This document shows, in pieces, positions 45,202 to 48,876 of a stretch of DNA of 64,000 bases. The stretch's first letter is position 1. Every line of letters begins with the position of its first letter. Location of the stretch: the NCBI RefSeq assembly GCF_988243305.1, contig NZ_OZ547136.1, one strand, 5' to 3'. The translations under genes were made by a program, and so were the position numbers. The notes under the pieces are model-generated. The model ran no database searches. It worked only from the letters and a program-made list of their open reading frames with translations, and was not told the origin of the DNA.

Positions 45202-45435
45202 ATGCCGGGTTACACAGAGTATGTCCTGGCTGAAGGATCTTTCTCATACGGGCAGGCGGTTGCTGTCATAACCGCTTACCGCAATGTGTTTATCCAGGAT
45301 GACCCGGGAATGCATTTCCGTCGGGTTATCCGCAACGCGGAAGGTCAGCGACGCTGGCGCTGCCGGAATTCTGAACACGATGCCGGAAAGGTGCTTAATA
45401 CGCGGCTCGCCAGTGACGGTCTTCTCAGACAATAA
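45202..45435 (+). CDS. Small island protein, DUF905-like (77 aa)
   Basis: AGGAG RBS; [45 protein letters not shown]. Confidence 0.45.
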
Positions 45436-45534
45436 ACGTCATTCATTTCACCCATCAGGCCGCGTCTTCTCCGGGAGACGTGGCTTTTTCATTTATTACA
45501 CCAGTAAATCTTAACCACCGATAAGGAGCAAATT

Positions 45535-46353
45535 ATGCGACTAGCCAGTCGTTTTGGTTATGCGAACCAGATACGCCGTGACCGTCCGCTGACACACGAA
45601 GAACTGATGCACTATGTGCCGGGGATTTTCGGGGAAGATAAACACACGTCCCGAAGCCAGAACTATACGTACATCCCCACCATCACCGTACTGGAAAGCC
45701 TGCAGCGGGAAGGCTTTCAGCCATTCTTCGCCTGCCAGACCCGTGTGCGCGACCCGGGCCGCCGGGGATACACAAAACACATGCTGCGTCTGCGGCGGGC
45801 CGGAGAGATAAACGGAGAACATGTCCCTGAAATTATTCTGCTCAACTCTCATGACGGTACCTCCAGCTACCAGATGCTGCCGGGGTACTTCAGGTTCGTC
45901 TGCCAGAACGGCTGCGTCTGTGGTCAGTCTCTGGGGGAAGTACGTGTTCCGCACCGGGGAAATGTGGTGGACAGAGTCATTGAAGGGGCTTACGAGGTGG
46001 TGGGCGTGTTTGACCGGATAGAGGAGAAGCGTGATGCCATGCAGTCGCTGGTCCTGCCGCCACCGGCACGCCAGGCGCTGGCACAGGCGGCGCTGACTTA
46101 CCGTTATGGTGACGAACATCAGCCCGTCACCACCGCCGACATTCTGACACCACGACGCCGGGAGGATTACGGTAAGGACCTGTGGAGTGCTTATCAGACC
46201 ATCCAGGAGAATATGCTGAAAGGCGGGATTTCCGGGCGCAGTGCCAGAGGAAAACGTATCCATACCCGGGCCATTCACAGCATTGATACCGACATTAAGC
46301 TCAACCGCGCATTGTGGGTGATGGCAGAAACGATGCTGGAGAGCCTGCGCTGA
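45535..46353 (+). CDS. DUF932-family protein (YfjQ/YafZ-like), 272 aa
   Basis: Conserved position upstream of the antirestriction gene in CP4-type islands. Confidence 0.5.
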   Translation: MRLASRFGYANQIRRDRPLTHEELMHYVPGIFGEDKHTSRSQNYTYIPTITVLESLQREGFQPFFACQTRVRDPGRRGYTKHMLRLRRAGEINGEHVPEIILLNSHDGTSSYQMLPGYFRFVCQNGCVCGQSLGEVRVPHRGNVVDRVIEGAYEVVGVFDRIEEKRDAMQSLVLPPPARQALAQAALTYRYGDEHQPVTTADILTPRRREDYGKDLWSAYQTIQENMLKGGISGRSARGKRIHTRAIHSIDTDIKLNRALWVMAETMLESLR

Positions 46354-46434
46354 TGCCGTTTCCCTGAGTGAGGGAATCATTCAGCTTTCGTTCCTGAAAA
46401 ACACACATTTATTTGTTATTTAAGGAGTTATCTC

Positions 46435-46914
46435 ATGAAGACCGTTTCTCAGAATACCCCCACAATTTATTCAGCTACAACACCAGAGAATAATCCGCCT
46501 CAGTTGGTTGCCAGCCTCGTCCCTGATGAACAGCGCATCAGCTTCTGGCCGCAGCATTTTGGCCTCATTCCACAGTGGGTGACCCTGGAGCCCCGTGTTT
46601 TCGGCTGGATGGACCGTCTGTGCGAAGACTACTGCGGGGGTATCTGGAATCTGTACACTCTGAACAACGGCGGGGCATTTATGGCCCCCGAACCGGATGA
46701 CGATGATGACGAAACATGGGTACTGTTCAATGCCATGAACGGCAACCGCGCTGAAATGAGCCCGGAAGCCGCCGGCATTGCTGCCTGTCTGATGACGTAC
46801 AGTCATCACGCCTGTCGTACGGAGTGTTATGCCATGACGGTCCACTATTACCGTCTGCGGGATTACGCCCTGCAGCATCCGGAATGCAGCGCCATTATGC
46901 GCATCATCGACTGA
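46435..46914 (+). CDS. Antirestriction protein (ArdB/KlcA family; YfjX/YafX-like)
   Basis: Acidic stretch PEPDDDDDETW; size ~159 aa; followed immediately by RadC-like gene. Confidence 0.65.
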   Translation: MKTVSQNTPTIYSATTPENNPPQLVASLVPDEQRISFWPQHFGLIPQWVTLEPRVFGWMDRLCEDYCGGIWNLYTLNNGGAFMAPEPDDDDDETWVLFNAMNGNRAEMSPEAAGIAACLMTYSHHACRTECYAMTVHYYRLRDYALQHPECSAIMRIID

Positions 46915-47406
46915 ATGGAGGCAGGGACAATGCAGCAGCTTTCCTTTCTGCCCGGAGAAATGACGCCCGGCGAGCGCAGTCTCATTCTGCGGGCTCTGAA
47001 AACCCTGGACCGCCATCTTCATGAACCCGGTGTGGCCTTCACCTCCACCCGTGCGGCACGGGAATGGCTGATTCTGAACATGGCGGGACTGGAGCGTGAA
47101 GAGTTCCGGGTGCTGTATCTGAATAACCAGAATCAGTTGATTGCCGGTGAAACCCTCTTCACCGGCACCATCAACCGCACGGAAGTCCATCCCCGGGAAG
47201 TGATTAAACGCGCCCTGTACCACAATGCCGCTGCCGTGGTGCTGGCGCACAATCACCCGTCCGGTGAAGTCACACCCAGTAAGGCAGACCGGCTTATCAC
47301 CGAACGTCTGGTACAGGCACTGGGTCTGGTGGATATCCGGGTGCCGGACCATCTGATAGTCGGTGGCAACCAGGTTTTCTCCTTTGCCGAACATGGTCTG
47401 CTTTAA
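46915..47406 (+). CDS. yeeS: RadC-like JAB/MPN-domain protein
   Basis: JAMM motif VVLAHNHPSGEVTPSKAD; start overlaps preceding stop. Confidence 0.7.
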   Translation: MEAGTMQQLSFLPGEMTPGERSLILRALKTLDRHLHEPGVAFTSTRAAREWLILNMAGLEREEFRVLYLNNQNQLIAGETLFTGTINRTEVHPREVIKRALYHNAAAVVLAHNHPSGEVTPSKADRLITERLVQALGLVDIRVPDHLIVGGNQVFSFAEHGLL

Positions 47407-47468
47407 CCCGTCACAACCACATCACACCTGTTTTCACTTTTATCTTCTGTCTTCAGAGGTATCCCATT

Positions 47469-47690
47469 ATGAAAATTATCACCCGTGGTGAAGCCATGCG
47501 TATTCACCAACAACATCCGACATCCCGTCTTTTCCCGTTCTGTACCGGCAAATACCGCTGGCACGGCAGCACTGAAGCGTATACCGGTCGTGAAGTGCAG
47601 GATATTCCCGGTGTGCTGGCCGTGTTTGCTGAACGTCGTAAGGACAGTTTTGGCCCGTATGTCCGGCTGATGAGCGTCACCCTGAACTGA
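47469..47690 (+). CDS. yeeT: YeeT-family protein (DUF987), 73 aa
   Basis: MKIITRGEAMRIHQQHPTSRLFPFCTGKYRWHGS...; precedes cbeA. Confidence 0.6.
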   Translation: MKIITRGEAMRIHQQHPTSRLFPFCTGKYRWHGSTEAYTGREVQDIPGVLAVFAERRKDSFGPYVRLMSVTLN

Positions 47691-47852
47691 TGTTCCGTCA
47701 CCCGGAAAACGAGTACGACTGGCTGAGCTCAGACGCCGCTGTGGATGAGGCCCTGCTCATAAACGAATACACCTTTACCGAAGGCGGTCTGCGCGCCGGC
47801 TGACCTGTCATCGTTAAACCATTCTTAACCGATTTTCTGTGAGGATTTTATC

Positions 47853-48221
47853 GTGTCAGACGCACTCTCCGGGATAACTCATCCCGACGACAATCACGAC
47901 CGCCCCTGGTGGGGGCTTCCCTGCACAGTGAGGCCCTGTTTCGGGGCACGTCTGGTGCAGGAGGGTAACCGCCTGCATTACCTTGCCGACCGCGCCGGTA
48001 TCAGAGGCCTGTTCAGCGATGCAGATGCGTACCACCTGGACCAGGCCTTTCCGCTGCTGATGAAACAACTGGAACTCATGCTCACCAGCGGTGAACTGAA
48101 TCCCCGCCATCAGCATACCGTCACGCTGTATGCAAAAGGTCTGACCTGCAAAGCTGACACTCTCGGTAGCGGTGGTTACGTTTATCTGGCTGTTTATCCG
48201 ACGCCCGAAACGAAAAAGTAA
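47853..48221 (+). CDS. cbeA: Type IV antitoxin CbeA (YeeU), 122 aa
   Basis: [49 protein letters not shown]. Confidence 0.8.
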
Positions 48222-48310
48222 ACCACCGGAATAACCTTCTGCTCCGGCCTGGTGCTTTCACCACGCCACTTTTCCATTTTTCATCTCTGCATATCAGGAA
48301 AACCTTCAGT

Positions 48311-48685
48311 ATGAAAACATTACCCGATACACACGTACGGGAGGCATCGAGCTGCCCGTCTCCCGTCACCATCTGGCAGACTCTGCTCTCCCGACTACTG
48401 GGCCAGCATTACGGCCTTACACTGAATGACACACCGTTCGCCGATGAACGTGTGATTGAGCAGCATATTGAGGCAGGCATTTCACTGTGTGATGCGGTGA
48501 ACTTTCTCGTGGAAAAATACGCGCTGGTGCGTACCGACCAGCCGGGATTCAGCGCCTGTACCCGCTCTCAGTTAATAAACAGTATTGATATCCTCCGGGC
48601 ACGCCGGGCAACCGGCCTGATGACCCGCGACAATTACAGAACGGTAAATAACATTACCCTGGGTAAGTATCCGGAGGCGAAATGA
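48311..48685 (+). CDS. cbtA: Type IV toxin CbtA (YeeV), 124 aa
   Basis: [49 protein letters not shown]. Confidence 0.8.
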
Positions 48686-48876
48686 TGACACTGGAAGCCG
48701 ACAGCGTTAACGTACAGGCGCTGGATATGGGGCACATTGTCGTTGACATTGATGGTGTTAATATCACTGAACTGATTAATAAGGCCGCTGAAAACGGTTA
48801 TTCACTCCGCGTGGTGGATGACCGTGACTCTACCGAAACACCGGCAACTTATGCCAGCCCTCACCAGTTGCTGTAA
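48682..48876 (+). CDS. yeeW: YeeW-like small protein (64 aa)
   Basis: Start overlaps cbtA stop; conserved position after toxin gene. Confidence 0.5.

Follow-up and report, generated by a model that had tools for sequence, protein, structure and literature searches.

Positions 45202-48876 (3675 bp) of the 64,000-nt stretch of contig NZ_OZ547136.1 analyzed here (the window, to which all position numbers refer) hold eight co-oriented open reading frames (ORFs), from a DUF905 gene to yeeW. With a probability that we put at roughly 85%, this module is the distal end-module of a P4-type ('CP4') genomic island at the cobU/CP4-44 locus of an Escherichia coli chromosome. Compared with its homologues, the module consists of seven intact genes and three gene fragments and is hence incomplete, because YeeW is a fragment, a 214-aa gene and a DUF957 gene survive as remnants, and DUF4942 is absent. 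The cassette is real and had been correctly identified in the initial annotation of the window; it is also already well described and ordinary in E. coli.

The chromosome is that of E. coli, and the window carries three of its tRNA-Asn genes. The locus is flanked by cobT-cobS-cobU on the left and by yoeF (a EutP/PduV fragment), tmaR and yeeA on the right. The island spans about 24.5-49.2 kb of the window and contains insertion sequence (IS) fragments, a group II intron, two zinc-ribbon proteins, a YagK/YfjJ protein and a DUF3987/YfjI protein, followed by a YeeP-type GTPase, Ag43, a full-length YeeR (838 aa), IrmA (151/151 identical to a RefSeq IrmA-family protein) and then the module. Neither an integrase nor a relaxase, a type IV secretion system (T4SS) or mob genes were found among the island ORFs or in the annotated island of B1-56, which is 99.9% identical. 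Judged by this gene complement, the copy in the window sits in an immobile, integrase-less and partly decayed island.

At least 80% of the 3675-bp stretch was found in 4284 of the 5426 complete E. coli genomes (~79%), at a median of three places per genome (range 1 to 18). In CP4-6, CP4-57 and CP4-44, as well as in the serX island of UTI89 and the tRNA-Ile island of HZDC01, the end-module occupies the end of the island and faces outward. The cassette is very probably a widespread and paralogous one that sits at the outward-facing end of CP4-type islands.

Gene content and decay of the module

All eight ORFs of the initial annotation are present in the ORF list with exact coordinates on the + strand (Table 1), and in a Pfam profile search each of the eight proteins matched, far beyond chance, the family that had been named for it. 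The match covers essentially the whole profile for seven of them and is restricted to DUF5983_N for YeeW. Among NCBIfam models, RadC was the sole match for the eight proteins, and PADLOC returned no defense-system match for any of them. Two long antisense ORFs, at 45541-46380 (279 aa) and 46471-47394 (307 aa), were not taken as genes, as they lie wholly opposite Pfam-supported genes. A repeat search of 44.5-49.4 kb yielded only short repeats at chance level, and an Rfam scan of 37-52 kb gave no match inside the module, its one hit being the IS102/IsrC small RNA upstream of Ag43.

Table 1. Features of the end-module and of the segments that adjoin or overlap it, with positions in the window.
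Feature	Position	Strand	Basis
Terminator-like hairpin after irmA	45148-45186	+	12-bp stem (45148-45176) and T-run, folding z = -4.2
DUF905, YkfF-like, 77 aa, intact	45202-45435	+	PF06006, E = 2.8e-16; PDB 2HJJ match
Terminator-like hairpin after DUF905	45457-45497	+	13-bp stem (45457-45486) and T-run, z = -3.8
DUF932, YfjQ/YafZ-like, 272 aa, intact	45535-46353	+	PF06067, E = 3.9e-52
ArdB/KlcA-type antirestriction, 159 aa, intact	46435-46914	+	PF03230, E = 2.4e-37
RadC-like JAB/JAMM protein (YeeS), 158 aa	46930-47406 (ORF from 46915)	+	PF04002, E = 8.3e-45
DUF987 (YeeT), 73 aa, intact	47469-47690	+	PF06174, E = 7.5e-39
Remnant of 214-aa gene (phrog_5162), 37 codons and stop	47690-47803	+	UTI89/HZDC01 comparison
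CbeA (YeeU) type IV antitoxin, 122 aa, GTG start, intact	47853-48221	+	PF06154, E = 1.9e-52
CbtA (YeeV) toxin, 124 aa, intact, chimeric	48311-48685	+	PF06755, E = 1.4e-62
YeeW, 64-aa N-terminal fragment of DUF5983 protein	48682-48876	+	Pfam DUF5983_N only, 2e-29
DUF957 pseudogene remnant, C-terminal 30 residues	48910-48999	+	tblastn
Segment absent from K-12 CP4-44, 3357 bp	43597-46953		blastn against NC_000913
Minimal gene-conversion tract	46092-48439		comparison with BEC1-S17, B1-56 and K-12 copies

The initial annotation had taken all eight ORFs to be intact, which stands for seven of them: these have the length of their RefSeq-annotated orthologues, no internal stops, and identities of 98.7-100% (119/124 for CbtA). 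Identities to the copy of strain BEC1-S17 are 76/77 for DUF905, 272/272 for DUF932, 159/159 for ArdB, 158/158 for RadC, 73/73 for DUF987, 122/122 for CbeA and 119/124 for CbtA. YeeW is the exception, as it aligns to residues 5-64 of full-length DUF5983 proteins, which have 162-163 aa and an N- and a C-terminal domain. Right after it are encoded the last 30 residues of DUF957, whose counterpart in the near-identical B1-56 island PGAP calls a pseudogene, and DUF4942, the closing gene of complete modules, is absent after this remnant. The truncated yeeW/DUF957 junction recurs in 3950 of the 5426 complete genomes, usually once per genome. Being so common, it is on this distribution an old, vertically inherited deletion scar, shared across the species at the CP4-44 locus.

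A further fragment lies in the 163-nt spacer between yeeT and cbeA. There, a 37-codon ORF overlaps the yeeT stop (TGATG) and represents the 3' end (residues 178-214) of a 214-aa gene, of which UTI89 and HZDC01 have intact copies. Its candidacy as an unannotated, translationally coupled micro-gene was rejected on account of this origin and of its mainly nonsynonymous changes. Nonsynonymous to synonymous codon changes among copies stand at 8:3, 9:2 and 3:1 in the remnant, against 3:15, 3:7 and 3:7 in yeeT. Because its codon changes are mainly nonsynonymous and those of yeeT mainly synonymous, the ORF is best regarded as a decaying fragment; it remains open in several diverged copies. The module had been called complete, a description that does not hold. 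The complete series reads DUF932, ArdB, JAB, DUF987, (214-aa protein), CbeA, CbtA, DUF5983, DUF957 and DUF4942, and the window copy falls short of it, with two remnants that had been missed. What the annotation gains is a correction: both YeeW and the 37-aa ORF downstream of yeeT have to be listed as gene fragments, and three to four genes are lost from the supposedly complete module.

The genes are closely spaced, as had been noted. This spacing does not extend to a single operon, given the strong terminator-like hairpins after irmA and after DUF905. The first of these probably ends the flu-yeeR-irmA unit, the co-transcription of which is cited in PMC6480617, and the two together fit a split of the region into at least three predicted transcription units, namely flu-yeeR-irmA, DUF905, and DUF932 or ardB onward. 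In CP4-57, yfjX-yfjY-ypjJ-yfjZ-ypjF form one operon repressed by MqsA (PMC10846083), and by analogy with these lfgABCDE genes, ardB-radC-yeeT-cbeA-cbtA would likewise be one operon. A + strand promoter scan upstream of the module genes returned none that was convincing, and its hits were no more numerous than those in shuffled sequence. Downstream of the DUF957 remnant, at 49036-49066 (+), the tail of the DUF905 terminator (TGGCTTTTTCATTTAT, 45481-45496) recurs in CGCCAGC...GCTGGCG followed by TTTTCATTTAT, which may be a third terminator of the DUF905 type.

Mosaic structure and predicted functions

Between 45378 and 48471 (3094 bp), the window has zero mismatches to a paralogous copy that lies beside the kps capsule genes in strain BEC1-S17. 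Over the minimal tract of Table 1, numerous mismatches separate it from the B1-56 and K-12 copies at the same locus, and from 48472 on it is 100% of the same-locus type and no longer agrees with the BEC1-S17 copy. The simplest reading of this pattern is a gene-conversion tract of 2.3-3.1 kb that came from a paralogous island and ends inside cbtA, the breakpoint lying between 48439 and 48472. Because the tract ends within the gene, cbtA is, by this site pattern, chimeric: its 5' ~130-160 nt come from the paralogous copy and the rest is of the resident CP4-44 type. In the alignment, all ten amino-acid differences from K-12 CbtA fall in residues 1-31. Documented gene conversion from paralogue to paralogue that yields a chimeric toxin gene has some value; the converted patch and the Cys15 of CbtA, discussed below, are minor new details.

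The functional steps proposed here are drawn from experimental work on paralogues, the closest of them near-identical and the most distant about 70% identical. CbeA and CbtA form an antitoxin-first pair, 89 nt apart, which covers positions 1-100 of 101 of the CbeA_antitoxin profile and 1-112 of 112 of the CbtA_toxin profile, and CbeA matches PDB 2H28 (E = 7e-76). Residue F65 of CbtA is invariant in an alignment of seven alleles, and the F65S substitution abolishes FtsZ binding in CbtA, YpjF and YkfI (PMC5624674). Because F65 is conserved, FtsZ targeting by the allele of the window is likely. By analogy, CbtA would bind the H6/H7 loop of FtsZ through its F65 surface, and possibly MreB, thereby stopping division and elongation, and CbeA would counteract it indirectly, as a type IV antitoxin, by bundling FtsZ and MreB filaments. 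At residue 15 the window has Cys, K-12 has Arg, and the MreB determinant R15 is absent. The R15C variant of K-12 CbtA loses MreB binding and produces filaments instead of lemon-shaped cells while keeping its toxicity; C15 is also the natural residue in YpjF and YkfI, the former of which still binds MreB (PMC5624674). Residue 15 is not family-defining for CbtA toxins, and a natural Cys15 allele offers a possible test of whether the targeting of MreB and that of FtsZ can be separated in wild alleles. The addiction function that the initial annotation had attributed to this pair could only be inferred, and it sits poorly with an integrase-less island whose right-end scar is found in 3950 of 5426 genomes.

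The antirestriction function suggested for the ArdB/KlcA-type protein proved well founded. The protein covers PF03230 from 1 to 92 of 92 and matches ArdB of CFT073, the crystal structure of which is available (PDB 2WJ9; E = 1e-101), as well as KlcA (2KMG; 4.2e-21). Its differences from 2WJ9 are concentrated in the first ~24 residues, with a single one from residue 25 on. In vivo, ArdB-CFT relieved Type IA-ID restriction 54- to 1174-fold, and ArdB-CFT, YafX and YfjX all gave relief of Type IA, IB, IC and ID restriction, with little anti-modification and no binding in vitro (PMC2836571). On the strength of this near-identity, ArdB would block Type I restriction in vivo while leaving modification unblocked.

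For the RadC-like protein, the probable start is the ATG at 46930 rather than position 46915; it gives 158 aa, has GGAGG 7 nt upstream and is the RefSeq start. The protein covers PF04002 from 2 to 121 of 121 and matches PDB 2QLC. Its JAMM metal-binding motif HxHx7SxxD is intact (HNHPSGEVTPSKAD, residues 107-120). For LfgB/YfjY (71% identity), protease activity that degrades MqsA has been reported (PMC10846083), and the protein of the window would, by extension, be a JAMM metalloprotease.

Relation to plasmid leading regions

In the initial annotation the module was also termed leading-region-like. The part of this that stands is the gene content shared with the leading regions of IncF and IncL plasmids; what does not fit is the lack of a relaxase, a T4SS, ssb/psiB and an integrase. 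The DUF932 protein has homologues (62-64% identity) on at least 5000 plasmids, of which 4415 are conjugative, whereas homologues of CbtA on plasmids amount to 66 records. On an IncF plasmid, the DUF932 homologue (64%) adjoins the SLT/traM side, that of the origin of transfer (oriT), and DUF905 (47%), ssb, psiB and psiA lie near it. On a pOXA-48-like IncL plasmid, a set co-oriented towards mobA/traI comprises a RadC/JAB gene (60%), DUF4942 (34%), a gene for an 81-aa protein (56%), a Hha-family gene, DUF1380, ArdB/KlcA (32%) and ssb. IncF and IncL leading regions share with the window co-oriented DUF905, DUF932, ArdB/KlcA and RadC/JAB genes, and with complete modules also DUF4942. In contrast, the plasmid regions have no members of the DUF987, CbeA/CbtA, DUF5983 and DUF957 families, and the module is chromosomal and its element immobile.

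In the island neither ssb nor psiB was found, and its intergenic folds are short terminator-type hairpins only, as seen without a dedicated Frpo search. Since relaxase, T4SS and mob genes are also absent from the island, the module does not qualify as a leading region by definition, a verdict reached without an oriT search. On the gene content, the label is a fair description of ancestry and not of present function. That the cassette shares ancestry with the anti-defense and establishment genes of plasmid leading regions is, in our estimation, highly probable.

It is improbable, by comparison, that the module is a working leading region, that is, that the island moves or has moved as single-stranded DNA by conjugative mobilization and that the module genes are the first to be expressed in the recipient. 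ArdB would then defeat restriction, the JAB protein would remodel host proteins, and CbeA/CbtA would stabilize the element. The placement of the DUF905 and DUF932 homologues between ssb/psiB and the oriT side in IncF plasmids speaks for this, as does the co-orientation towards mobA/traI of the IncL RadC/JAB, DUF4942, 81-aa protein, ArdB/KlcA and ssb genes. Leading regions concentrate anti-restriction, methyltransferase, single-stranded DNA-binding protein and toxin-antitoxin genes on one strand (PMC11541004). Moreover, a screen of an F-like T4SS found YfjX (the ArdB paralogue), CbeA, YfjZ and YagB among 32 translocated chromosomal proteins (PMC11288057). The island also encodes a YagK/YfjJ 'inovirus Gp2 family' protein and a DUF3987 protein. 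Nevertheless, CP4-type islands are not known to have an oriT, and the island is devoid of the relaxase, T4SS, ssb, psiB and integrase genes. CbtA homologues are rare on plasmids when set against those of DUF932, long Frpo-like structures were not seen in the intergenic folding (which, again, was not a dedicated Frpo search), and the outer end of the module, where by analogy an oriT should lie, has been deleted from the window copy.

Two further readings were weighed. A domesticated host stress-response operon, in which the JAB protein would act on a host regulator by proteolysis, as LfgB acts on MqsA, and CbtA-family toxins would aid oxidative-stress tolerance and biofilm control apart from any function in a mobile element, is very unlikely. 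In K-12, deletion of lfgB (yfjY) sensitizes cells to H2O2, acid and heat, and MqsA represses the operon whose product LfgB is reported to degrade it (PMC10846083). Furthermore, deletion of all three K-12 toxin genes lowers oxidative-stress resistance and antitoxin deletion increases early biofilm (PMC5371832), and seven genes of the module are intact, with mostly synonymous divergence in yeeT. These experiments, however, concern CP4-57 paralogues 63-71% identical to the window copy. The presence of 1-18 places per genome with frequent gene conversion resembles a selfish cassette rather than a fixed host function, and K-12 has lost half of its CP4-44 copy at no known cost. That the module is a non-functional relic, its ORFs open only because decay has yet to reach them, is extremely improbable, even though three neighboring genes are already fragments, the island has no integrase and the promoter scan found no promoter. 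Seven ORFs of 73-272 aa are full length and near-identical to annotated orthologues, the changes in yeeT are mostly synonymous while those in a true remnant, the 37-codon ORF, show the reverse, and homologous proteins are active on expression (PMC5624674, PMC2836571).

The end-module of a CP4-type island, related by descent to plasmid leading regions, remains the reading that we favor. Several points weigh against its functional side: Cys15 makes a dual-target claim (FtsZ and MreB) for this CbtA allele uncertain; the protease role of the RadC-like protein depends on one study of a 71%-identical paralogue; a simple scan detected no sigma-70-like promoter upstream of DUF932, ardB or cbeA; and the expression and activity of the window copy would follow only by analogy.

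It is also conceivable, albeit unlikely, that CP4-type end-modules are chromosomal counterparts of plasmid leading regions that still work in conjugation, by either of two routes. The islands may be mobilizable as single-stranded DNA, through a YagK/YfjJ Gp2-like nickase and an origin located beyond DUF4942; alternatively, ArdB and CbeA-family antitoxins may be exported via the T4SS of a co-resident plasmid and prepare recipients. If so, the window copy would have descended from such a module, disabled but with its exportable proteins retained. The gene content held in common with IncF and IncL leading regions may reasonably guide work on the spread of integrase-type islands, and the window itself is a poor place for testing it. 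As a discovery, the module carries little weight, given its presence in ~79% of genomes, its published arrangement, and the prior characterization of ardB and cbeA/cbtA on near-identical proteins.

Surroundings of the module and comparison with known islands

Elsewhere in the island, a group II intron reverse transcriptase/maturase (RVT_1 and GIIM domains) is encoded at 27915-29438 (+), between IS3-family fragments, at a position for which K-12 CP4-44 has no counterpart. The YagK/YfjJ protein ('inovirus Gp2 family') weakly matches the Rep ORF2/G2P family; its gene and the nearby DUF3987 (YfjI) gene lie at 31417-32022 (-) and 34922-36475 (-), respectively. From their family matches, these proteins could be a nickase/primase-like pair that bears on the replication or transfer of CP4-type islands. 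The Rfam IS102/IsrC small RNA is found in full length at 38612-38815 (+; 253 bits) and overlaps the 5' end of the Ag43 ORF (38680-41955), as it does in K-12 CP4-44. To the right of the island, within 50275-52612 (-), an IS110-family transposase gene (50888-51868; 326 aa; DEDD_Tnp_IS110 and Transposase_20) is flanked by ORFs at 50275-50703 and 51932-52612, the latter with a FUSC_2 domain. Because the transposase gene sits between two ORFs of which one has FUSC_2, yeeA appears to be interrupted by an IS110-family element. At the far left, window 1-7000 has a G+C content of 0.55-0.61, markedly above that of the rest of the window, and large + strand ORFs.

The pairwise comparison with K-12 CP4-44, CP4-6 and CP4-57 proposed in the initial annotation gave identities for each gene. 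CP4-57 lfgABCDE and CP4-6 yafX-ykfG-ykfH-yafW-ykfI share with the window a five-gene core in the same order (ArdB, RadC/JAB, DUF987, antitoxin and toxin), at 61-82% identity. For CP4-6, the values are 70% for YafX (ArdB), 82% for YkfG, 66% for YkfH, 62% for YafW and 61% for YkfI, with 75% for YafZ (DUF932), 45% for YkfF (DUF905) and no YeeW counterpart. For CP4-57, they are 69% for YfjX (ArdB), 71% for LfgB/YfjY, 64% for YpjJ, 66% for YfjZ and 65% for YpjF, with 74% for YfjQ (DUF932) and no DUF905 or YeeW counterpart. The DUF932 genes (YfjQ/YafZ) and the DUF905 gene (YkfF) lie upstream of the core in these K-12 islands and, unlike in the window, several other genes separate DUF932 from ardB. 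The toxins of CP4-57 and CP4-6 have 109-113 aa and an antitoxin-toxin spacer of 20 nt, compared with 124 aa and 89 nt in the window.

The complete module of the UTI89 serX island is much closer, with DUF932, ArdB, JAB, DUF987, CbeA and CbtA proteins 91-99% identical to those of the window. It has in addition an 81-aa gene after DUF932, an intact 214-aa gene, DUF5983 (163 aa), DUF957 (65 aa) and DUF4942 (280 aa), and it stops at a tRNA gene. Three of these extra genes are present in the window as fragments only, and DUF4942 is absent.

K-12 CP4-44 and the island of the window occupy one locus, from cobU to yoeF/tmaR/yeeA, and both have the decayed right end and the DUF957 remnant. Identities between the two are 99.3% for YeeS, 98.6% for YeeT, 91.8% for CbeA, 91.9% for CbtA and 100% for YeeW; the alleles differ in most of cbeA and in the 5' part of cbtA, and the yeeT-cbeA spacer of K-12 has 74 nt and is without the remnant of the 214-aa gene, compared with 163 nt in the window. 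The module had been supposed to be more complete than its K-12 counterpart, and blastn against NC_000913 agrees: K-12 is without the 3357-bp segment of Table 1, which contains the 3' third of yeeR, irmA, DUF905, DUF932, ardB and the 5' end of radC. In K-12, YeeR is cut at residue ~507 of 838, YeeS is without its first 10 residues, and irmA, DUF905, DUF932 and ardB are absent. This fuller state is correct and already published, the 3357-bp deletion of K-12 being described in PMC6480617. The same work reports the flu-yeeR-irmA(aec69)-aec70-aec71-yeeS-yeeT cluster of E. coli 042 and uropathogenic E. coli, in which the gene order is that of the window and nothing substantive differs. The window is a further instance of this published 'full' arrangement of the CP4-44 cluster (PMC6480617).

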